Numbered from the stretch's first letter, positions 1,616-53,288 are shown. The stretch: 53,288 nucleotides of DNA from an uncultured Candidatus Saccharibacteria bacterium (GCA_964474375.1 CAYYSG010000003.1:1-53288), one strand, 5' to 3'. Made by a program: numbers and translations. Notes: a model not told the origin generated them from the letters alone.

Positions 1616-1631
1616 CATATCCGTTCGACCC

Positions 1632-1641
1632 ATGCTATACT
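1632..1641 (+). promoter_or_regulatory. Extended -10 promoter (TGnTATACT) upstream of the glycosyltransferase cassette
   Basis: ATGCTATACT; near-identical boxes at 6292-6301 and 46717-46726. Confidence 0.6.
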
Positions 1642-1758
1642 ACGGCCCAGACGACGGACCCGTGTTAGGGGAAGTGGGTCCCCCTGACTGGGATATACTG
1701 AAGACCGGGAAGTCCTTCCCCGCTCCGTCGTTTCAATCTTTTCGCCGTTCGTGTTGAG

Positions 1759-1803
1759 AACAGCGACCAGACGCCCCAGGCGGGCATCCGGTCGCTGTTT
1801 TTT
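1759..1803 (+). terminator. Intrinsic terminator in the leader
   Basis: Stem AACAGCGACC/GGTCGCTGTT followed by TTTTGTTGTTT. Confidence 0.7.
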
Positions 1804-6277: not shown

Positions 6278-6291
6278 ACACTAGCACGCCC

Positions 6292-6301
6292 ATGCTATAA
6301 T
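6292..6301 (+). promoter_or_regulatory. Extended -10 promoter upstream of the tail tube gene
   Basis: ATGCTATAAT. Confidence 0.65.
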
Positions 6302-6331
6302 CCTTCCAGCATAACCGCGACCCGTGATGAG

Positions 6332-6360
6332 GGCCGCCCCAGACTGGGGCGGCCTATTTT
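6332..6360 (+). terminator. Intrinsic terminator in the tail leader
   Basis: GGCCGCCCCA-GAC-TGGGGCGGCC followed by TATTTTGTTGT. Confidence 0.7.
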
Positions 6361-6384
6361 GTTGTCAACAAAAGGGGAAAGAAC

Positions 6385-15311: not shown

Positions 15312-16040
15312 TCAGTGGGGGGCGTATGTGGACATGGGGCGGAGCGTGTACACGTTGACGACCTGGACGTCATAGTCCGGGAATGCCGCCGCATGCTGAT
15401 GGGCCCAGTTCTGGGCGACCAGAGCGAAGCCGAACGTCCGGGCCTGGTCCGGGTCGTTCGTCCAGTACGTCGCCGCCCCCCATGCGTCCTTCAGGTACAT
15501 GACTTCGCCGTTGACCGTCGACCGGATGATCCAGCGCTTGTTCGCGGCCCGCAAGGCCGGGGAAACGTTCGGGACCTTCGGGGCATCCGCTTCCTTCAGG
15601 ACCTGGGGCTTCGTGTTCGGGAACAGGTCATGGGCCGCGTTCCCGGCCCGGAAGGCATCCCCGTACACGTCCCAGCGGGTCGCGTCTTCCAGGCCGGGAG
15701 CCCAGACCAGTTCCCCGTCCAGGTCGCGGACGACTAGGAACCAGTTCCCGTCGTCCCGAACGTCCAGGATGACGTACGGGCCCATGAAGCCCCCGTTCCG
15801 ATTGTACAGGGACTGGGTCGTTCCGGGAAGGAAGTAAACCGGGGGCGGTCCGTCTTCCCCCCGGACCGCCAGGACGCGGGACTGGTCCATCAGGGCCGCC
15901 AGCACGGACCAGGCCCAGATCGGGTCCTTCTGGGCGCGAAGCAGGTCGACCATGTCGGGTTCCGGCATGGTCCGGACCTGGGCGATCGCGGAAATCAGAA
16001 CGGCGGACAGGTCGATCGCGGCGGGCGTGTTGAGTGTCAT
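15312..16040 (-). CDS. Hypothetical early protein with two copies of a small W...YWT.D.D.A..F module
   Basis: Start reassigned to the ATG at 16040, preceded by the GGAAGGA-GAACCC initiation signature. Confidence 0.7.
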   Translation of the reverse strand: MTLNTPAAIDLSAVLISAIAQVRTMPEPDMVDLLRAQKDPIWAWSVLAALMDQSRVLAVRGEDGPPPVYFLPGTTQSLYNRNGGFMGPYVILDVRDDGNWFLVVRDLDGELVWAPGLEDATRWDVYGDAFRAGNAAHDLFPNTKPQVLKEADAPKVPNVSPALRAANKRWIIRSTVNGEVMYLKDAWGAATYWTNDPDQARTFGFALVAQNWAHQHAAAFPDYDVQVVNVYTLRPMSTYAPH

Positions 16041-16760: not shown

Positions 16761-16789
16761 AATATACACGGATATACGGATATTGTCAA
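16761..16789 (-). promoter_or_regulatory. Sigma70-type early promoter with operator
   Basis: TTGACA-17-TATATT on the - strand; ATATACGGATAT at 16772-16783 lies in the spacer. Confidence 0.8.
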
Positions 16790-16856
16790 GGGGTGAATTC
16801 TAGGTACGCGAAGACCCCGGACCGAAGGCCGGGGTCAATGCTCCGTCAGGGGCGTT

Positions 16857-17549
16857 CTAGCGGGGCGAACGGACCGGAATACCCTGGTACGTCAACGCTT
16901 CCGCGTAATGGACGGCCCGGATGTGTGGGGACAGCGCCAGGGACGCGATCGACCGGGCGACCCGAAGAACAGCATCCATGTGTCCCGTCGTCGCCCCGAT
17001 CTGGGCCTGGATGAACCGGGCCTTCAGCTTCCGGCATGGGTCGTCCAGGTCCAGGCGGTCCGCATGGTCGATCATGTGTTCGACCCCCAGCGCAACACGG
17101 CGGAAGACGGCCTGGTCGGTCCAGTATGTTTCCGGACTGGTCCGCTTCGCTCCGTCCCCGAACGGGACTTCCAGGACCAGGTCCGCCCGCATGGCGGACA
17201 GGTATCCGTCCGAACGCGGATAGTCATGCGTAAGCTGTTCCGAACAGACGCATGGGTCGTTCGGCTTCCCGCTGTTTCCACAGAAGCAACTGAACACGGT
17301 CGCAACCGGAAGACCGTACGCCCGTCCCCAGGTCGCAAAGCGCATGGTCGTTTGCGGGTTCCCATGGGACAGAAGCGTCACACGATGGGAGCATACCAGG
17401 GCGACTTCCAGGGCCCGCTTGACGTGTTCGTGTCCCTGGATGCTTTCCAGCTTTGGGACCGAACATTTCCGGAAGACCGACATGGGGAACCAGGTCGACG
17501 CTTCGTCGACCCAGCGGGCGTCCGATGGAAGTAAGTTCAACGTCTGCAT
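16857..17549 (-). CDS. Truncated ComM/YifB (Mg-chelatase-related AAA+) homolog lacking intact Walker motifs
   Basis: SIQGHEHVKRALEVA, CFCG...PCVC, RADLVLEVP and VLRVARSIASL...HYAEALTY match successive YifB/ComM blocks. Confidence 0.75.
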   Translation of the reverse strand: MQTLNLLPSDARWVDEASTWFPMSVFRKCSVPKLESIQGHEHVKRALEVALVCSHRVTLLSHGNPQTTMRFATWGRAYGLPVATVFSCFCGNSGKPNDPCVCSEQLTHDYPRSDGYLSAMRADLVLEVPFGDGAKRTSPETYWTDQAVFRRVALGVEHMIDHADRLDLDDPCRKLKARFIQAQIGATTGHMDAVLRVARSIASLALSPHIRAVHYAEALTYQGIPVRSPR

Positions 17550-28771: not shown

Positions 28772-29938
28772 TCAATTCCGGGTCGTCATGGGCTGGACCA
28801 TATGCAGATAGGTTCCATCGTGCCCGACCGGGCGGAAGATTGCGCCATGTACGGGCGACTTGACCGCGATATGAACCATTGGCATGGGAAGACAGGTCAA
28901 ACAGTCCCGGAAGTATTTCCCGTTGACCGCTATCCGCATGGGGGTTCCGTCCAGGCCGGATACGTCCGCCGTCGCCGTCGCCATACTGACGCCGCGCCCC
29001 TGGGTCGACGCTTCGACCGTGACCTTCCCCGGTTCGTCGTCGTTCGACCGGGCGATCGTCAGATGGGTTATGTTGTTTGTGGACATGACCAGCGCCTGGT
29101 CCAGCGCCTTCAGCAGGTCCGCGACCGCGACCCGAACATGGACCGGGTCGTCGTCCTGGTTCCGAAGGACCGGGTCGACGTTCGGGAAGTCCCCATCCAG
29201 GATGCGGGTCCAGACCTGGGCGAACCCCGCGTCCAGGACGAACAGACCGGCCTTCCCCATCAGGCCCCCTTCAGACGCGGCTAGGCCCAGGAAGACGTCG
29301 TCGTCGCCCGATAGCCCCAGCGCCTGGAAGGATTTAACCGCGTCGACGAAGCCCTTCGCCGGGACCAGGACGTCCAGCGGAGCGACCGATCCCGGAAGGT
29401 CCTGTTCCAGGCGGGCGCAGCGGAACCCGTCCGCCGCTTCCGCCCGGACGATCGTGTCCAGTGTCAGATGGATGCCGGACAAGACCGGGCGGGCGAAGTC
29501 GGTCGCGGCGGCGGGGGCGACCTGGGACACGATCGCGTCCAGGCATCCCAGCGGAACGGCCCGGTCGCCCGTCAGGGACGGAATAGCGGGGAAGTCGTCC
29601 GGGTCCATCACGTTAATGATCGTCGACGTCGACGGGGCCGTCAGGGATACCTGGGGGCCGTTCAGTTCCAGGTCGACGGCATCCTTCGGGAGCTTCGACA
29701 CGATCTGGGACAGCGGGTCGAACGGGATACAGGTTCGACCCGCGTCCCATATCTTCGCCGCGACCTTGACCCGGATGGTCAAATGGTCGTTTGACGCGCT
29801 GAACACGACATGTCCGTCGTCGACCGTGACCAGGACCGACGTTCGGATGGGATGGGCGGCCTTCGTGTCCGCCTGGACGGCGGGCTTGACGACGGACAGG
29901 GCCTGCTTCAGGACATCCTGAAGGATCGTAATGTGCAT
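28772..29938 (-). CDS. dnaN: DNA polymerase III beta sliding clamp
   Basis: AATDFARPVLSGI, ADGFRCA, TRILDGDFPN, VNGKYFRD and VQPM C-terminus. Confidence 0.93.
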   Translation of the reverse strand: MHITILQDVLKQALSVVKPAVQADTKAAHPIRTSVLVTVDDGHVVFSASNDHLTIRVKVAAKIWDAGRTCIPFDPLSQIVSKLPKDAVDLELNGPQVSLTAPSTSTIINVMDPDDFPAIPSLTGDRAVPLGCLDAIVSQVAPAAATDFARPVLSGIHLTLDTIVRAEAADGFRCARLEQDLPGSVAPLDVLVPAKGFVDAVKSFQALGLSGDDDVFLGLAASEGGLMGKAGLFVLDAGFAQVWTRILDGDFPNVDPVLRNQDDDPVHVRVAVADLLKALDQALVMSTNNITHLTIARSNDDEPGKVTVEASTQGRGVSMATATADVSGLDGTPMRIAVNGKYFRDCLTCLPMPMVHIAVKSPVHGAIFRPVGHDGTYLHMVQPMTTRN

Positions 29939-29939
29939 G

Positions 29940-30344
29940 CTAGTTTCCTTCTGTACTCAACACGTCCGACAATGCGTCCAGTTCCAGTTCGGCGTACATG
30001 GCCCAGGTCTTCGCCCGGAACAGGGCGTCTTCGACCGACAGAAGCTGGGACAGTTCGTCCTTCTGGTCGATCGTCCGCTTGCGACGGCGAAGATACCCGA
30101 CCATTTGTTCCGGATGGTCCAGGGCCTGGAAATACGCCTTCAGCATGACGCCCCAGCGGCGGAGCGTGTCGATCGAACAGCGACACATGGTCGCTTCGAA
30201 GCGATCGTCCGCCCGCTTCAGGGCGTCGTCGACCAGCGTCCGCGTTTCGGACGGGTCGTTCCGACAGGTCGGGCACAACAGGATGCCGTCATCCTGGGGG
30301 GCGGTCTTCGTCGAACAGACCCGGCATGTAATCTGTCCATCCAT
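29940..30344 (-). CDS. Zinc-finger hypothetical protein
   Basis: CRVC...CPTC; tightly packed between dnaB and dnaN. Confidence 0.7.
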   Translation of the reverse strand: MDGQITCRVCSTKTAPQDDGILLCPTCRNDPSETRTLVDDALKRADDRFEATMCRCSIDTLRRWGVMLKAYFQALDHPEQMVGYLRRRKRTIDQKDELSQLLSVEDALFRAKTWAMYAELELDALSDVLSTEGN

Positions 30345-39554: not shown

Positions 39555-40204
39555 GCGGAACCGGGAACCCCATGCGCGTCGACGACGATCGGTTGTGTGG
39601 CGCGAAGACCCGGGCGGGCGGGTCCTGTCGCCGGGTCGCAATGGCGAACGGGCGCTGTGACATGCACGGCGGAAAGTCGCTGTCCGGCATCGCGGCCCCT
39701 GCGTTCAAACACGGGCGCTATTCGAAGCATCTTCCGGCCCGGATGGCGGAGCGATACCAGGCATCCCTGGACGACCCGGACGCGCTGAACTTGCGACAGG
39801 ATGTCGCCCTGGTCGACGCCCGCCTGAACGACCTGCTATCCCAGGTCGACACGGGCGAAAGCGGTCGCCGCTGGGGGCTTCTGAAGGACGCGGCGGATGC
39901 GTACCAGGATGCGTCGACCCCGGACGACCAGAAGACGGCCCTTCGTCGCATGCTGGGGCTCATCCAGGCCGGGTTCAGTGATCACCTTGCATGGCAGGAT
40001 ATAGGACAGGCCCTGGAACAGCGGCGGAAGCTGGTCGACACGGAAGCGAAGCGCCTGAACCAGAACCGCCTGACTATTTCCGTTGAACGCGGCCTGGTTC
40101 TTATGGGCGCTATGGTCCAGATCGTCCGGAACCACGTCAAGGACCCGCATGTCCTGGGAGCGATAGCGGATGAATTCGAACAGCTTACGATCGTCGACGG
40201 CTGA
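39551..40204 (+). CDS. terS: Terminase small subunit (HGGxSTG-motif type)
   Basis: CGAKTRAGGSC...GRCDMHGGKS...KHGRYSK; immediately upstream of terL. Confidence 0.8.
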   Translation: MSGTGNPMRVDDDRLCGAKTRAGGSCRRVAMANGRCDMHGGKSLSGIAAPAFKHGRYSKHLPARMAERYQASLDDPDALNLRQDVALVDARLNDLLSQVDTGESGRRWGLLKDAADAYQDASTPDDQKTALRRMLGLIQAGFSDHLAWQDIGQALEQRRKLVDTEAKRLNQNRLTISVERGLVLMGAMVQIVRNHVKDPHVLGAIADEFEQLTIVDG

Positions 40205-41570
40205 ACGGCGGATGGTCCAGTACGGAGCGGACCAGCTTCGGGAGCCCGTGACCGACCAGAACGGCCCGATCGCGTGGCGCGGCTCCGCCGCGCAAGTTCA
40301 GGACTGTTACGACCAGGAATGGATGATCGCGGGCCCCGCTGAAACGGGGAAGACCTGGGCGGCCTTATGGAAGCTGGACAATCTCATGCGGTCGACCCCG
40401 AAGGCGAAGGCGGCCCTGGTCCGGAAAGTCGCGGCGGACATCCCGGCGACGGTGTTACAGACCTGGTATCGGGTCCTGGAACGGTCTGGGAGCGGCGCGG
40501 AACCGTACGGTGGGAAACATCGGCCCAGTGAATTCGTCTATCCGAACGGGGCGGTTCTGTATATCGGCGGCATGGACCGGGCGTCCGCCGTGCTGTCCGG
40601 GGAACGGGACTTCGTGTACGTCAATCAGGCGGAAGAACTGTCCCTGAACGACTGGGAAACGCTGTCAACGCGAACCACGGGGCGCGGCGCGGTCACGGAT
40701 ACGCCCATGCTGTTCGGGGATTGCAATCCCGGCCCGCCGTCGCACTGGATTTTAGCCCGACAGGGTCTGAAGCTGTTTCACTCCCAGCATAAGGACAATC
40801 CGTCCCTGTACCGGGATGACGGGAGCTTGACCGCCCAGGGCGAACGGACCATGAAGACCCTGTCCCGCTTGACCGGCATCCGGCGCGAACGGCTGTTCCT
40901 GGGCCGCTGGGTCGCCGCTGAAGGGACCGTCTACGAATTCGACCGGGCGCGGCATCTGCTACCCCGGTTCGACATCCCGAAGGACTGGGCGCGGTATCGG
41001 GCGATCGACTGGGGCTATACGAACCCGTTCGTCTGTCAATGGTGGGCGGTCGACGGGGACGGGCGGATGTACCTGTATCGGGAGATATACATGTCCAGGC
41101 GGACCGTTCGGAAACATGCGGGACAGATCAAAGACCTGGAACGCTGGACGCTTCCAGACGGCGAAACGAACCCGGACCGGGAACGTATCGCGGGGACGAT
41201 CGCGGACCATGACGCGGAAGACCGCGAAACGCTCCGCGAAGAAGGCATCCCCAGTCGACCGGCGAACAAAGCGATTACAGTCGGCATCCAGAAGGTCCAG
41301 GAACGCCTTCAGGACGCGGAAGACGGGCGGCCCAGGTTGTTCGTCCTGGAAGGGTCCCTGGTCGAACTGGACCAGGACCTGGTCAATGCCCATCAGCCGA
41401 CGTCGACGCTTGCGGAATTCGACGAATACGCATGGCCGAAGGGACAGGACGGGAAGGCCGTCAAGGAAGTCCCGGTCGACGCCTATAACCACGGGATGGA
41501 TGCCATGCGCTATATGGCTATGCGTCTGGATCGATCGTATCAGAATACCGCGTTAGGGGCGTTCTCATGA
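40170..41570 (+). CDS. terL: Terminase large subunit (start may be 40212)
   Basis: GPAETGKT Walker A, YVNQAEE, GDCNP, IDWGYTNP and NHGMDAMRY. Confidence 0.95.
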   Translation: MNSNSLRSSTAERRMVQYGADQLREPVTDQNGPIAWRGSAAQVQDCYDQEWMIAGPAETGKTWAALWKLDNLMRSTPKAKAALVRKVAADIPATVLQTWYRVLERSGSGAEPYGGKHRPSEFVYPNGAVLYIGGMDRASAVLSGERDFVYVNQAEELSLNDWETLSTRTTGRGAVTDTPMLFGDCNPGPPSHWILARQGLKLFHSQHKDNPSLYRDDGSLTAQGERTMKTLSRLTGIRRERLFLGRWVAAEGTVYEFDRARHLLPRFDIPKDWARYRAIDWGYTNPFVCQWWAVDGDGRMYLYREIYMSRRTVRKHAGQIKDLERWTLPDGETNPDRERIAGTIADHDAEDRETLREEGIPSRPANKAITVGIQKVQERLQDAEDGRPRLFVLEGSLVELDQDLVNAHQPTSTLAEFDEYAWPKGQDGKAVKEVPVDAYNHGMDAMRYMAMRLDRSYQNTALGAFS

Positions 41571-46026: not shown

Positions 46027-46472
46027 TGGAACTGAAGATTGTCGTCGACGCGGACCAGGCGCTTCGTCTGCTGAAGATACCGAAGGGCGAACTTGTCCGG
46101 AACATATCGGAAGCGGCGGTCGACGCGGTCCTGGACGTCGCCCTGGAAGACCCGCCCCAGACGCATGACCCGCAACCGTTCGTGTCGGACAAACAGCGGC
46201 GGTTCTTCTTCGCCGCCCTTCGGGACGGGACGATCGACGTTCCGTACATCCGGACCGGGGAAATGGTTGAAAGCTGGGACCCCCAGTACCTGAACGACGG
46301 GGCGGTTCTGTCGAATTCCAGCGACCATGCGTTCTGGGCCCTTGCGAAGGATACGCGGACCAGCTACTTCCAGGGCGGGCCCTGGATGGACGAATACGAT
46401 ATAGCGGACGAAGCGGAAGGGCCGGTCGGGACCGCCGCCGCCGACGAAGTCGAAAGGATGATCGGGCCGTGA
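46026..46472 (+). CDS. HK97 gp10-like neck/tail completion protein
   Basis: SDKQRRFFFA...YIRTGEMVESW...SNSSDHA pattern. Confidence 0.6.
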   Translation: MELKIVVDADQALRLLKIPKGELVRNISEAAVDAVLDVALEDPPQTHDPQPFVSDKQRRFFFAALRDGTIDVPYIRTGEMVESWDPQYLNDGAVLSNSSDHAFWALAKDTRTSYFQGGPWMDEYDIADEAEGPVGTAAADEVERMIGP

Positions 46473-46711
46473 TTGCACATGACGACGTCACAGTCGCACT
46501 ACTCGCCACCATGCGGATGAACCTCATCCTTCTGGAAACGGCGATCGTCCCCAGGCTGACCCCGGACCAGGCGAACCGGGTCAAGGCCGGATGCCGGATG
46601 CTTCTGGGCGGGGTCGAAGACGTCCTGGGTCTGGAACGGACCATCCCGACCCATCGGGAACGCCGTCTGGGCCGCGACCAGACGACGGAACGTAGCACGC
46701 CGGGGACTTGA
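46469..46711 (+). CDS. Small helical protein upstream of the head operon leader (possible regulator)
   Basis: GTG start overlapping the previous stop; MLLGGVEDVLGLERTIPTHRERR. Confidence 0.55.
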   Translation: MIAHDDVTVALLATMRMNLILLETAIVPRLTPDQANRVKAGCRMLLGGVEDVLGLERTIPTHRERRLGRDQTTERSTPGT

Positions 46712-46716
46712 TCATT

Positions 46717-46726
46717 ATGCTATACT
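46717..46726 (+). promoter_or_regulatory. Extended -10 promoter for the head operon
   Basis: ATGCTATACT. Confidence 0.65.
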
Positions 46727-46824
46727 TCCGGGCAAGGGGATGAACGTCCCCGACCCAGGAAGAACAGGGGCGGTCACTTGATCCTTGCGCCGCCCCTGGA
46801 ACCTAATATCCGACCCGTGTTGAG

Positions 46825-46852
46825 GGCCGATCCCGGAAGGGGTCGGTTTTTT
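46825..46852 (+). terminator. Intrinsic terminator immediately before the protease gene
   Basis: GGCCGATCCC-GGAA-GGGGTCGGTT followed by TTTT. Confidence 0.7.
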
Positions 46853-46854
46853 CT

Positions 46855-49215
46855 ATGCCTGACCAGAACGCGCCGCCCCCAGGGGCCGATCAATCCGTCA
46901 AGCCGGGGTCCGGAAGCGGACCGGGCGGCAAAATGACACCGGCTGAACGGGCCCGCCATGCGTCCCTGGTCCGCTGGAAGAAGGAACAGCCCTTCGCGGC
47001 CCGACTGGCCGCCGCCCGCGAAGCCCGGAAGGCCGCGAAGAAGGGCGGCAAGGGGAAGGGGAAGGGCGGCGGGGCGAAGGAAACGCCCGACCAGAAGAAG
47101 GCGAAGGCCCAGGCGGAAGCAGCGAAGAACCGCGCCCAGGTCATGGCCGCGTTCAGTGGCGCGTATGACACGGACATCCTGAAGAACATGGAAGCCCTGG
47201 TCCGGGGGGACGACCTACCCGAAGACGGGGCGGACGACATGATCCGGTCTGGACTGGCGGAGCGGGTCGGACCGGACGGAACCCTGGTCCCGACCCCGGC
47301 GCTTCGTCAACTCTGGAACGCGGCATCCGATGGGGACCGGGGCAAGGCGAAGGAAATCATCGCACGGGCGGAAGACAGTTACGACCAGAAGGTCCAGAAG
47401 GACCAGGCGAAGGCCGAACGCGAAGCCGGACGTACGTCCGGCAAGAACGGAACCGAAGGCCGGGGTCTGGACAAGTCCGGGAACCCAGCGGACGCGATCG
47501 GGAAGAAGGGCGAAAACGCCCCCCAGGACGCGACAGGCGGGTCCGGGACGGGCCTGAAGGACAAGCTGAAGGGAATGATGGGGGAAGCCGGTTCCGGCGC
47601 GTCTGGGGCCGCCCAGGAAAAGAAGAAGGGCGGCGGGGGCGGCGGCGGGAAGGGGAAGGACGACAAACCGACCCCGGAACAAACCGCAGCGGACACCGCA
47701 TCCCAGACGACGGGCCGGTCCGCCGTGTCCGACCAGGATGTATCCGCCCTTCGGGACCTGTCCCAGGGCCGGACGGCGAAGAACACGGACCGCCTTCGGG
47801 CCCTGGGCTATATCGAAACGGACGACGACGGGAACGACGTCGCCACATCCGAAGGACGGCGGGCGCTGTCCGCCCTGGAACGCGGGGACCTGGGAGCATA
47901 CCAGGCCGCATATGAACAGGCCCGGTCGAAGAAGCGTTCAGCGGACCGGGCCCAGGTCGACCGGAACCAGCGGGGGAACGCCCAGGCCGAACAGGACGCG
48001 GAACGGCGGAACGCGATACGGCGGGCCGTGACCCGGAACCCGATCAAAGCGCACGAAGGAACAGACATGAGCTATGCGGACATCCTGGAAGCCCTGGACC
48101 CGCTCCCGGACCAGTTAGCAGACTACGCGGACCGCCTGGTCCAGGACGGAACGAAGGCCGGGGCGCGAAACAGCGCAGCGGACCAGGCCCTGATCAATGA
48201 AATTTACAACAAAGCGGAAGACCTGCTTCTGTTAGCGGAAGAACTGGGGGCCGAACTGGGCGTCGACCTGGGGGACGAAGACCAGGAAGAACCGGACGAC
48301 GACATGGACGACGACGCCATGAAGGCGCTGTCCTATGACCAGGCGTCCGAACAGGTCCGCTCCGCCTGGTATCAGGCCATGCGGTCGAACGGCCCGCCCA
48401 TGCTGGACGACGACGGTCCGGCCCGTATCTATCCGATCGCAATCTACCCGGACGCCCTGATTATTGAACAGGGCACGAAGAAGTACAAAGTCGGGTACAC
48501 GGTCCAGAACGGCGACTATACCTTCGCGGACCGCTCCGCCTGGGTCCAGGTCGAACCGGCCTGGGTCCCGGTTCAGGCCCCGCCGTCCGGCCTGGAAGCG
48601 GTCAAGGCCCTGAACGATACCGGGAAGGTCGGGGCGTACGCCATCCTGTTCGGGAGTGAAGATACCCCGGACCTGTCCCCGTTCCAGGACTTCTTCACAA
48701 AGAAGACCGACTTCTGGCTAGGGGAATGGTCGAAGCGGCCCATGCTGTTCCATCACGCAATGGACCCGGCGACGAAGGCCGCCCCTGTTATCGGGACCTG
48801 GAATAAGGCGGTCCTGGACGACGTCGGGGTCTGGATGGAAGGTCAACTGGACATGGCGCATAAGTATGCGTCCGCCGTCCAGCAACTGGTCACAATGGGG
48901 AAGCTCCGCGTGTCCAGTGATAGCGCCCCCCACCTGGTCGTCCGCGACCAGAAGCCGAACGGGACGAACGAAATCAAGCGCTGGCCGATCATGGCCGCGT
49001 CCTTGACCCCGACCCCAGCGGAACCGCGTTTACTCCCGGTCGAAGCGCTCAAGAGTGTGTTCAGCGCGGCGGGTCTTGACTTGCCGCTGGAACTTATGCA
49101 GACCCAGGACGCCCCCCAGGCGTCGACGAAGGCGGCCCAGGCCGCGAAGGTCGACCCTGAACACGAACGTCAACGTCTGCTTCTGGAACTGGATTTAATG
49201 GAACTGGAAGGCTAA
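46855..49215 (+). CDS. Prohead protease (HK97/S78-like) with a roughly 570-aa charged N-terminal extension
   Basis: C-terminal GAYAILFG...FFTKKTDF...LFHH...GVWMEGQL...SSDSAPHLV...SLTPTPAEPR. Confidence 0.85.
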   Translation: MPDQNAPPPGADQSVKPGSGSGPGGKMTPAERARHASLVRWKKEQPFAARLAAAREARKAAKKGGKGKGKGGGAKETPDQKKAKAQAEAAKNRAQVMAAFSGAYDTDILKNMEALVRGDDLPEDGADDMIRSGLAERVGPDGTLVPTPALRQLWNAASDGDRGKAKEIIARAEDSYDQKVQKDQAKAEREAGRTSGKNGTEGRGLDKSGNPADAIGKKGENAPQDATGGSGTGLKDKLKGMMGEAGSGASGAAQEKKKGGGGGGGKGKDDKPTPEQTAADTASQTTGRSAVSDQDVSALRDLSQGRTAKNTDRLRALGYIETDDDGNDVATSEGRRALSALERGDLGAYQAAYEQARSKKRSADRAQVDRNQRGNAQAEQDAERRNAIRRAVTRNPIKAHEGTDMSYADILEALDPLPDQLADYADRLVQDGTKAGARNSAADQALINEIYNKAEDLLLLAEELGAELGVDLGDEDQEEPDDDMDDDAMKALSYDQASEQVRSAWYQAMRSNGPPMLDDDGPARIYPIAIYPDALIIEQGTKKYKVGYTVQNGDYTFADRSAWVQVEPAWVPVQAPPSGLEAVKALNDTGKVGAYAILFGSEDTPDLSPFQDFFTKKTDFWLGEWSKRPMLFHHAMDPATKAAPVIGTWNKAVLDDVGVWMEGQLDMAHKYASAVQQLVTMGKLRVSSDSAPHLVVRDQKPNGTNEIKRWPIMAASLTPTPAEPRLLPVEALKSVFSAAGLDLPLELMQTQDAPQASTKAAQAAKVDPEHERQRLLLELDLMELEG

Positions 49216-51866: not shown

Positions 51867-53288
51867 ATGGCCGACAATGTAACATTCCAGAATACCGTAA
51901 CCGCAACGCCCCCGACCGCGACGGTCGTCGCAACGGATGAGATCGGCGGCGTACACTTCCAGCGGGCGAAGATTGCGTTCGGGGAAGATGGGACCGCCTG
52001 GTCTGTATCAGACGGGACCCCGTTCCCTGTCCAGACGATCGGAACTGGACAGGTCCTGGGAACCGTCCAGGGCCTTCCAGGAAGCGTTCATATCGCGTCC
52101 CCTATTCCGGGCACGGTCCAGGCGCTGGGGACGTTCCAGGGCCTTCCAGGAAGCGTACACGTAGCGAACCAGGTCGACGCCCAGATCGTCGGGACCGTCC
52201 AGGCGCTGGGGACCCTTCAGCCGTTAGCAGGTTCCGTCCATGTGGCGAACCTGGCGCTGACGACCGGGACCGTCCAGGTCCGGGGAAGCGTTCAGCCGTT
52301 AGCGGGCTCCGTCCATCTTGCATCCGGCCTTCCGGGAACCGCCCAGGTCCTGGGAACCGTCGTCGTCATGCCGCTTCCGACTGGGGCTGGAACGCCCTTG
52401 ACGGTTCGACTATCGGACGGGGCGTCGTTCTATACCGCGTCCGGGGGCGCGGGCGGCGGCGGAGCATCCGCAACCGACCAGGCCGCCTTCAGCGCCGGGG
52501 TTCTGACGGTCGCCCCCATTGCGGGGGTCAGTACCATTACGGCGATCGGACAGGGAAGCGTCGGGGCCCTTGCGATGGACCAGTCCCGCGTCCTGTACGT
52601 CCGGGGGACCCTGGACGGCGGAACGGTTCAACCCCTTGCGGGCTCCGTGCATGTGGCGAACGTTCCCCAGGTCACGGTCGGGGGAACCGTCCAGGTTCTA
52701 GGAAGTGTCCAGGCGGTCGGAACCGCCCAGGTTCTAGGAACGGTCCAGGGGCTAGCGGGGTCCGTGCATGTAGCGAACCTGGCGCTGACGACCGGAACGG
52801 TCCAGGCGCTGGGGACCGTTCAACCGTTAGCGGGGTCGGTCCATGTGGCGAACCTGGCGCTGACGACCGGGACCGTCCAGGTCCGGGGAAGCGTTCAGCC
52901 GTTAGCGGGCTCCGTCCATCTTGCATCCGGCCTTCCGGGCACAGTCCAGACGCTGGGAACCATTGTCAATACCGGCTTCGGGTCCAGCGGGACCCCGACC
53001 GCCGCCGCCGAACAGTCCGCCGTCCGGTTCTGGGTCGACCTGAACGGTCGACAGGTCATCCGGGGAACGATCGACCAGGTCCTGGGAACCATCCAGGCAC
53101 TGGGAACCGTTCAGCCGTTAGCAGGTTCCGTGCATGTCGCAAATGTTCCCCAGGTCACGGTCGGGGGAACCGTCCAGGTTCTAGGAAGTGTCCAGGCGGT
53201 CGGAACCGCCCAGGTTCTAGGAACGGTCCAGGGGCTAGCGGGGTCCGTGCATGTAGCGAACCTGGCGCTGACGACCGGAACGGTCCAG
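51867..53288 (+). CDS. 5' part of a roughly 615-aa repeat-rich fibre-like protein, missing from the ORF track because it has no stop before the window end
   Basis: MADNVTFQ...TDEIGGVHFQRAKIAFGEDG, then many GTVQxLAGSVHVAN repeats. Open to 53288 and continues in frame at 56-481. Confidence 0.85.
   Translation, partial: MADNVTFQNTVTATPPTATVVATDEIGGVHFQRAKIAFGEDGTAWSVSDGTPFPVQTIGTGQVLGTVQGLPGSVHIASPIPGTVQALGTFQGLPGSVHVANQVDAQIVGTVQALGTLQPLAGSVHVANLALTTGTVQVRGSVQPLAGSVHLASGLPGTAQVLGTVVVMPLPTGAGTPLTVRLSDGASFYTASGGAGGGGASATDQAAFSAGVLTVAPIAGVSTITAIGQGSVGALAMDQSRVLYVRGTLDGGTVQPLAGSVHVANVPQVTVGGTVQVLGSVQAVGTAQVLGTVQGLAGSVHVANLALTTGTVQALGTVQPLAGSVHVANLALTTGTVQVRGSVQPLAGSVHLASGLPGTVQTLGTIVNTGFGSSGTPTAAAEQSAVRFWVDLNGRQVIRGTIDQVLGTIQALGTVQPLAGSVHVANVPQVTVGGTVQVLGSVQAVGTAQVLGTVQGLAGSVHVANLALTTGTVQ
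52662..52805 (+). repeat. 144-bp perfect direct repeat (second copy at 53145-53288)
   Basis: Base-by-base identity. A separate 101-bp perfect repeat lies at 52236-52336 and 52839-52939. Confidence 0.85.
53234..53288. repeat. Terminal overlap, identical to 1-55
   Basis: Direct comparison. Confidence 0.9.

Follow-up and report, generated by a model that had tools for sequence, protein, structure and literature searches.

The late operons of the phage genome examined here begin with leaders of one and the same layout, and the question that these leaders raise is what decides whether transcription passes from the promoter into the structural genes. The window, by which we mean the whole stretch of 53,288 nucleotides that was analyzed, contains three of them. 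A first-pass annotation had described in each leader a promoter, a nine-nucleotide box (CGTGWTGAG) and an intrinsic terminator, and had proposed a nut/qut/boxA-like antitermination element that gates late expression. We find that cis elements bearing on termination are indeed located before the late operons, while their assignment to the nut/qut/boxA type is not sustained. Since the conserved part of the element is a helix that competes with the 5' arm of the terminator, our results point to local antitermination by alternative structures, of the RAT/ANTAR type, rather than to modification of the polymerase of the nut/qut/boxA type.

The window makes up the whole of its contig (C3), begins and ends with a 55-bp direct repeat (1-55 and 53234-53288), and has a G+C content of 63.6%, compared with about 37% in the other contigs of its bin. 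It is therefore a complete, circularly assembled and mis-binned phage genome of about 53.2 kb, and the bin is chimeric, because a phage contig of such composition sits among contigs of 37% G+C. The genes are laid out in two blocks. The virion block on the + strand begins at about 37.7 kb, passes the junction and ends at about 15.1 kb. Its start side carries an amidase/glucosaminidase, the large terminase (40170-41570) and a conserved portal-like gene, and its head genes encode a 786-aa protein with a prohead protease domain, the major capsid protein and a head-tail adaptor. Three glycosyltransferase/methyltransferase genes and the tail tube, tape measure and distal tail genes belong to the same block; the tail-tube-like protein matches phrog_290, and its homologs match Phage_tube_2. 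The early block on the - strand (15.3-37 kb) encodes DnaB, a DNA polymerase III beta-like clamp, methyltransferases and HTH proteins. The gene assignments agree with those made earlier, by which the box-bearing leaders precede the glycosyltransferase, tail-tube and protease/capsid operons. A DNA similarity search against deposited phages gave no match for the window, the protein search with the 786-aa protein returned no viral relatives, and a tail-tube profile search of the genome's contigs found nothing.

Each leader opens with an ATGCTATAMT box, at 1632, 6292 and 46717 on the + strand, exactly where promoter boxes had been placed. These are the only three occurrences in the window, and none is expected from 100 dinucleotide shuffles. 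The box corresponds to an extended -10 element (TGnTATAMT) with no -35 hexamer at 17 bp. The predicted promoters are thus TGCTATACT (1633-1641) for the glycosyltransferase-operon leader, where a TTCGAC hexamer is located 3 nt upstream of the TG, TGCTATAAT (6293-6301) for the tail-tube leader, and again TGCTATACT (46718-46726) for the protease/capsid-operon leader. The same promoter type is found at the homologous place in related phages. A scan for -35/-10 pairs with a spacing of 17-18 bp revealed near-consensus promoters (TTGACA-17-TATACT and similar) only in and around the - strand block. The late promoters of the window (1624-1641, 6284-6301, 46706-46726) and of its relatives also carry a TTGAC/TTGCR/TAGCAC-like hexamer 3-6 nt upstream of the TG, at a distance of about 7-9 bp, not 17, from the -10 element. 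In the relatives this hexamer often lies within a short palindrome (CTTGCGCAAG, TTGCGCGCAA, TTGCAA), and it could be an operator or an activator site. The reading of TAGCA as a -35 or Q-binding element was rejected, as its spacing is 8, 17 and 22 nt and its TAG is the stop codon of the upstream gene at two sites.

The box CGTGWTGAG occurs in the window in five exact copies, at 1750, 6323, 46816 and 16026 on the + strand and at 29956-29964 on the - strand; four had been listed, at the right positions, and the last had been missed. The expected number is 0.92 by dinucleotide shuffles and 0.04 by a second-order Markov model, which takes into account the depletion of GAG and GTG, whereas one-mismatch variants stay at the chance level (19 versus 22.7 expected). 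The copies in the tail-tube and capsid leaders extend, as had been stated, to an exact GACCCGTGWTGAGGGCCG at 6319 and 46812. The depletion of the words contained in the box is real and genome-wide, with observed-to-expected ratios of 0.11/0.15 for GAG/CTC (about eight-fold) and 0.30/0.32 for GTG/CAC (about three-fold). It is strand-symmetric and present in all three codon frames; eight long genes of the window use GAA 220 times versus 10 times for GAG, and among the 119 GAG words 78 are GAGC and 69 are GGAG. No such depletion was seen in the relatives G001, C367 and L046-49, and it looks like a lineage-specific avoidance of GWG/CWC at the DNA level. The earlier argument for selection on the box is borne out by the five copies against 0.04 expected, despite a depletion of GAG and GTG of 3-9 fold.

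Two of the five copies, CGTGTTGAG(T) or CGTGTTGAGT, lie outside the leaders and have no terminator. One, at 16026-16034 on the + strand (with the T to 16035), covers codons 2-4 of a - strand gene (start at 16040) in the antisense direction; its place within a - strand coding sequence had been noted before. The other, at 29956-29964 on the - strand (with the T from 29955), is read in the sense orientation in the early transcript and precedes by 25 nt the start codon (ATG at 29938) of the DNA polymerase III beta-like (dnaN-like) gene. Because only 0.04 copies are expected, these two are unlikely to be due to chance. The early mRNA also carries CUCAACACG, the complement of the leader loops. A hammerhead-like reading of UGAUGAG was rejected, as there is no GAAA/CUGA partner core and no Rfam match.

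At the three leaders the box is situated at U-tailed hairpins that are strong predicted terminators, as had been proposed; instead of merely abutting them, however, it overlaps the stem by 1-3 nt. Its nine letters belong to a second, smaller hairpin, in which they make up the 7-nt loop, the C that closes it and, on the 3' strand, the first G. In the glycosyltransferase-operon leader this hairpin, CGC-C-GUUC(GUGUUGA)GAAC-A-GCG, occupies 1743-1765 (+), and its last 8 nt are the start of the 5' arm of the predicted terminator (1758-1811), which has a stem at 1758-1799 of about -30 kcal/mol followed by UUUUGUUGUUUG. The tail-tube leader has GCG-A-CCC(GUGAUGA)GGG-C-CGC at 6317-6337 (+), with 7 nt in common with a predicted terminator (6331-6365) that consists of an 11-bp stem (6331-6355, about -26 kcal/mol) and AUUUUGUUGU. 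The protease/capsid-operon leader has CG-A-CCC(GUGUUGA)GGG-C-CG at 46810-46830 (+), also with 7 nt in common with its predicted terminator (46824-46852), in which a stem with G-U pairs (46824-46849, about -20 kcal/mol) is followed by U6. All three sites thus have the features by which intrinsic terminators are predicted from sequence, namely a G+C-rich hairpin and a U-tract directly behind it on the transcribed strand.

Only one of the two structures, small hairpin or terminator, can form at a time, as the 3' strand of the former is also the first 7-8 nt (4-9 nt in related phages) of the 5' arm of the latter. At the first site the shared strand GAACAGCG has the partners CGCCGUUC upstream and CGCUGUU downstream, and at the second site GGGCCGC can pair with GCGACCC or with GCGGCCU. 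The shared strand thus co-varies with each of these partners, which marks the element as an expression platform. The two structures differ in stability: the small hairpins have energies of -6 to -9 kcal/mol in the window and -6 to -14 kcal/mol in the relatives, versus -20 to -30 kcal/mol for the terminators of the window and -20 to -40 kcal/mol when those of the relatives are included. The loop GUGWUGA is constant at all three leaders though GTG and GAG are strongly avoided genome-wide, and for this reason it is probably part of what the factor of this phage reads.

Several further features of the leaders were noted. The first leader contains early on a second box-like mini-hairpin, GACCCGUGUUAGGGG (CCC-GUGUUA-GGG, 1657-1671, +), which may serve as an additional binding site. 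In the third leader, the start codon of the 786-aa protease-fusion gene (ATG at 46855) comes 5 nt past the U-tract of the terminator, whose loop and 3' arm contain the likely ribosome-binding site of this gene (GGAAGGGG), so that the hairpin may also mask translation initiation in read-through transcripts. Two additional pairings were considered and rejected. A general anti-antiterminator upstream of the small hairpin was not substantiated, since a GGUAGCG complement is present only in the tail-tube leader of G001, and pairing of an ACAAC tract with GUUGU of the U-tracts is inconsistent across relatives.

To follow the element beyond the window, we gathered related phages via the tail-tube protein (114 homologs) and then inspected their contigs. 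The first relative, IMG/VR contig 3300029171_000010 (G001), has 54% G+C and is syntenic with the window, with 30-62% amino-acid identity. It carries a promoter-leader-terminator unit before its glycosyltransferase, tail-tube and capsid operons, and none of these contains CGTGWTGAG. Directly 5' of each terminator there is instead CGCUACCC-(5-6 nt)-GGGCGGUG or CGCUGCUC-AAUC-GAGCGGUG, the second half of which is the beginning of the terminator 5' arm. We observed the cassette at homologous places in G001 (three times), L046 (two), L047, L048 (two), L049, L044 (two), L197, L198-L200 and C367 (five). Altogether the unit is present in at least a dozen contigs, before tail-tube, glycosyltransferase, capsid, tape-measure and distal-tail genes. 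Conservation of the box in relatives, which the first-pass annotation had itself set as the measure of its proposal, does not hold: the loops of the relatives read ACAC, UUA, ACAA, GUUUA, GAACA and others. What the relatives keep is the helix that contains the box, and this helix competes with the 5' arm of the terminator.

When 20 elements were folded singly for minimum free energy, every one formed the same hairpin, the 3' strand of which falls within the terminator arm. From its foot upward the hairpin has 3-4 bp, a 1x1 internal loop and another 3-6 bp, topped by a loop of 2-7 nt, and its overlap with the terminator is 4-9 nt; distant members read GCC-A-UCGG(loop)CCGG-C-GGC. The 1x1 position is an A-C mismatch in 14 of the 20 elements and a G-C pair in four, and in L200 it is an A-U pair. 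This architecture, taken as a fixed definition, is present in 22 of 25 elements, compared with 6.0 expected when the flanks are shuffled, and two terminators outside late leaders lack it. A tract ACAAYC located 2-5 nt upstream of the hairpin is conserved beyond any pairing, as in ACAACCUAAGAGCCAUCGG (five times in C367) and gACAACCnnCGCUACCC (nearer group), and its counterparts in the window are AUAACC, GAACCUAA and CAAUC. The loops are conserved neither between relatives nor within G001 or C367, and the leader bodies differ between relatives as well, whereas the hairpin/terminator junction is conserved. A factor, if there is one, probably reads the mismatch-bearing stem and the 5' tract. The device is absent in some relatives: L018 has the promoter only, and L014-17 have no intergenic region.

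Two groups of leaders in the relatives deserve separate mention. Leaders with 170-300 nt between promoter and hairpin and with T-arm-like GGTTCRAYTCC motifs are found in L048 (9760-9945), L046 (5240-5360) and L047 (1090-1360); the suggestion that they contain tRNAs was dropped, as ARAGORN predicted no tRNA and Rfam no known RNA. In G001 (g1rc 454-520 and 52378-52440), a promoter TGGTATACT/TGGTAGAAT with a terminator about 25 nt further on and no competing hairpin occurs twice near the contig ends, and such a unit would give a short RNA.

The helix is also supported by covariation. In the main alignment (A3) of 20 elements, which was padded and fitted by hand to the structure and so favors it, 96% of the cells are standard pairs and nine of ten pairs show compensatory changes on both sides, for example CCC/GGG, GCUC/GAGC, GUUC/GAAC and UCGG/CCGG. 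None of 500 shuffles reaches any of the five measures used, and controls with slid partners are 43-70% paired. RNAalifold recovered the same helix from a plain, unfitted MAFFT alignment of 13 distant elements; the same procedure predicted no structure for the nearer group, because variable loop lengths misalign the 3' strands. The instances are homologous, not independent, and the covariation rests partly on the hand-made alignment.

The element is specific for phages and is not a motif of their hosts. This is best seen in C367 of G002, a complete phage contig of 57.8 kb with a 141-bp terminal repeat that an NCBI Herpetosiphonaceae MAG includes among its contigs. C367 carries five copies of the pattern GCCATCGG-N3-9-CGGCGG, always on the + strand and each before a virion gene or operon, compared with 12 in the other 7.6 Mb of the MAG, where the backwards-read control also gives 12. 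A covariance model of the distant group recovers all five elements of C367 and, applied to 300 more genomes from this phylum, detected no genuine copy; its matches in seven other Chloroflexota genomes were rejected as false positives in coding regions without terminators. The host group is probably Chloroflexota, an assignment taken only from the binning of C367. On this contig a tRNA-Trp (57347-57421) is located about 215 nt upstream of the capsid-leader element, and the fifth element (16777-16860), which separates the tape-measure gene from that of the tail chaperone, lacks a promoter and has a degenerate U-tract. The leaders have no match in Rfam 15 at the gathering score or at E<=5, and the only Rfam matches in the loci of the relatives are two tRNAs. 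An exact-pattern scan of IMG/VR (AGCCATCGG..CGGCGGCG) returned 119 matches that are mostly chance occurrences in coding regions, together with one true element.

Taking these results together, we consider it somewhat more probable than its negation that the element acts as a local terminator/antiterminator switch, at which transcription ends unless a trans factor opens it. The cassette would operate in the order extended -10 promoter, variable leader, antiterminator hairpin, strong terminator and first virion gene. Termination is expected to be the default, because the mismatch-bearing hairpin (-6 to -9 kcal/mol) is much weaker than the terminator (-20 to -30 kcal/mol), and it would yield short leader RNAs of about 54, 115 and 150 nt; the shortest is that of the tail-tube leader, with a predicted start near 6308. 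A trans factor produced at an earlier stage of infection, in the simplest case an RNA-binding protein of the phage, would clamp the emerging hairpin, the terminator would then lose the base of its stem next to the U-tract, and the polymerase would read into the glycosyltransferase, tail and head operons. Loss of the 3-8 bp at the foot of the terminator stem, beside the U-tract, is also how antiterminators such as RAT and ANTAR are established to act. What the analysis shows is the anatomy of the cassette, its conservation, the covariation and its confinement to phage DNA; transcription from these promoters, the activity of the terminators, and the existence and identity of a factor are inferred. 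Some observations count against the switch. The two exact box copies outside any leader are not accounted for by it, the differences between loops within one phage (G001, C367) speak against a loop-reading factor as a general rule, and the promoter-less C367 element with its poor U-tract fits a constitutive attenuator equally well.

This last element leads to the reading of all copies as constitutive attenuators or insulators that act without a trans factor, the hairpin tuning the leakiness of the terminator, setting the ratios between operons and blocking read-through from upstream, with internal promoters re-supplying transcription. The location of the promoter-less, weak-U element of C367 between tail chaperone and tape measure, where down-tuning is expected, agrees with it, as do the dispensability of the device in L018 and L014-17 and the finding that a Watson-Crick pair can stand in for the mismatch (four elements have G-C and L200 has A-U), which looks like an adjustment of strength. 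Such attenuators would not explain, however, why the 5' strand and the ACAAYC flank are conserved well beyond the need of pairing (ACAACCUAAGAGCCAUCGG recurs five times in C367), nor why the loop in the window stays constant despite the strong avoidance of its words; a hairpin far weaker than the terminator should moreover rarely win unaided. We therefore regard this explanation as unlikely and retain the factor-opened switch as the preferred reading.

Processive antitermination, in which the hairpin and ACAAYC tract would serve as a nut/put-like loading site for a factor or RNA that modifies the polymerase and the overlap with the terminator would be secondary, has rather little probability in our judgment. 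The presence of a separate copy on its own terminator before each late operon (three in the window, five in C367) would be needless if the polymerase were modified once, and the shared-strand design is conserved with three-way compensatory change. The layout of promoter followed by terminator is that of lambda PR'-tR', and the conserved single-stranded tract followed by a small hairpin recalls boxA and boxB; against this, the initially transcribed region has no -10-like pause element and no DNA site at constant spacing. The arginine-rich tail of orf80, described below, loosely recalls ARM peptides, but no Q, N or NusG-like protein is found among the approximately 65 proteins of the window. In the Thermus phage P23-45, extended -10 late promoters are known together with antitermination by a protein alone, gp39 (PMC3351154), which is a further point in favor of this explanation.

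We consider it quite improbable that CGTGTTGAG is a duplex DNA site for a regulator of this phage, with its position at terminators being incidental. A DNA site would agree with the number of exact copies, five where 0.04 are expected, and with the location of two of them away from the leaders, one along and one against the direction of transcription, and the strand symmetry of the GAG/GTG depletion places that depletion at the DNA level. However, relatives without the 9-mer keep the helix, the stems around the constant loop co-vary (GUUC/GAAC versus CCC/GGG), which is a signature of RNA, and the 9-mer has no dyad symmetry. We give the least credit to stand-alone sRNA or tRNA units, in which promoter and terminator would bracket a short stable RNA and the virion genes would be transcribed from elsewhere: a tRNA-Trp (C367) and a tRNA-Leu (L026) are located upstream of such elements and the leaders of L046-L048 are 170-300 nt long with T-arm-like motifs, but the tail-tube leader has only about 54 nt, nearly all of them hairpin and terminator, the leader bodies vary between relatives while the hairpin/terminator junction is conserved, and for neither the tail-tube nor the capsid operon can a promoter apart from these be discerned.

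The preferred reading, a local switch opened in trans, calls for a factor. Pfam and PHROG scans of the approximately 65 window proteins detected no Q, N, ANTAR, CAT_RBD/PRD or NusG-like domains, in agreement with the earlier statement that no N or Q homolog is recognizable. Since the virion module alone is common to the window, G001 and C367, a conserved phage-encoded factor would be located in this module or would be too diverged to be recognized. The small ORF at 46469-46711 (+), which had been named as a candidate effector, is conserved at the same place in relatives. It is the one conserved non-structural candidate for the trans factor and a weak one, as its support consists of synteny and composition only. 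It encodes a protein of 80 aa (orf80) with a basic C-terminal tail, modeled as three helices and the tail (pLDDT 77), and is situated just upstream of the capsid-operon leader. The gene is kept in G001, C367 and a fourth contig, after a homolog of orf193 and immediately before the capsid leader. A word-indexed protein search returned only orf80 itself, one further homolog was found among 1.8 billion representatives, and there was no fold match and no sequence match in the PDB. The gene belongs to the upstream packaging operon, the promoter of which has no terminator after it in the window and in G001, and this location would make for a simple cascade.

A more far-reaching version of this model can be put forward tentatively, and we hold it to be doubtful as a whole. 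According to it, the ACAAYC tract and the mismatch hairpin fused to the terminator form a new cis-RNA family that would control all virion operons of a siphophage group probably infecting Chloroflexota. Its readers would be small basic-tailed proteins that likewise constitute a new family (orf80, at the end of the packaging operon), so that a feed-forward cascade of local antitermination would take the place of Q, N or a late sigma factor or activator. In the phage of the window this protein would have a second task: bound to the two extra GUGUUGA sites, of which one is just ahead of the dnaN-like ribosome-binding site, it would shut off early genes late in infection.

The textbook account of late-gene timing in phages relies on a few devices, namely Q, N, late sigma factors and activators. 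Among the known systems, the closest resemblance is to the RAT elements of BglG, SacY and LicT, which are also small imperfect hairpins with a mismatch that overlap the 5' arm of a terminator, and where default termination gives way to local read-through upon clamping by a protein, as proposed here. Unlike in these systems, no CAT_RBD/PRD protein was found among the approximately 65 window proteins, the hairpin is about 21-23 nt long compared with about 29 nt for RAT and is unrelated in sequence, and it is located before three to five phage virion operons, whereas RAT precedes sugar operons. The targets of ANTAR regulators (AmiR, NasR, EutV) are likewise short hairpins that compete with terminators, and one regulator serves several leaders; those targets, however, are two tandem hexaloop hairpins, in contrast to the single hairpin with a 2-7 nt loop observed here, and no ANTAR domain was found.

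The lambdoid late switch (PR', qut, 6S RNA, tR' and Q) shares with the present leaders an apparently factor-independent promoter, a strong terminator close behind it and late genes downstream, with a short leader RNA predicted. Such a promoter-terminator unit before late genes, its activity predicted, occurs three times in the window. Lambda, on the other hand, has a single unit, and its Q loads on promoter DNA and acts processively, whereas here each late operon has a unit of its own and the element is an RNA helix fused to the terminator, with no Q protein or sigma-dependent pause element seen. A search for a Q-type DNA element gave only a shared upstream motif (TAGCAY/TTGAC-like) at variable distance, and no -10-like repeat after the starts. 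In lambda N/nut and HK022 put, too, the nascent RNA has a conserved single-stranded tract and behind it a small hairpin, the sequence is specific for the phage, and a small basic protein is a candidate partner here. Unlike the present hairpin, which shares bases with the terminator, nut and put are located away from the terminators that they suppress and act over kilobases. The boxA consensus (CGCUCUUA-like) and a boxB with a 5-bp stem and a GNRA-like pentaloop are absent, the tract being ACAAYC and the loops variable (2-7 nt). No N protein with an N-terminal arginine-rich motif was found; the basic tail of orf80 is C-terminal, and this protein matches no family.

Thermus phage P23-45 (gp39, gp76) resembles the present phage in its division into early -35/-10 promoters and late extended -10 promoters with no -35 at 17 bp, and antitermination at intrinsic terminators, proposed here, is part of its programme (PMC3351154). 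Its gp39, however, acts on RNA polymerase without a cis RNA element, whereas the conserved feature here is a cis hairpin. In the Pfam and PHROG scans of the window proteins no antiterminator family was matched. The literature searched yielded Q, N, Xp10 p7, P23-45 gp39 and BaGTA BrrG, and in it we found no hairpin overlapping a terminator as a phage late switch, nor any known device that is a local RNA switch repeated before every virion operon. The present switch is defined to the base and supported by covariation over about 25 instances, in phages of poorly studied and mostly uncultured hosts. If its factor is found, the pair would provide a compact, orthogonal RNA/protein gate for synthetic biology and also a marker by which annotators could recognize late operons in metagenomic phages. 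The setting of such an element before late operons is undescribed in the literature searched, and the element itself, while a member of none of the families tested, would work like the attenuation governed by RAT and BglG.
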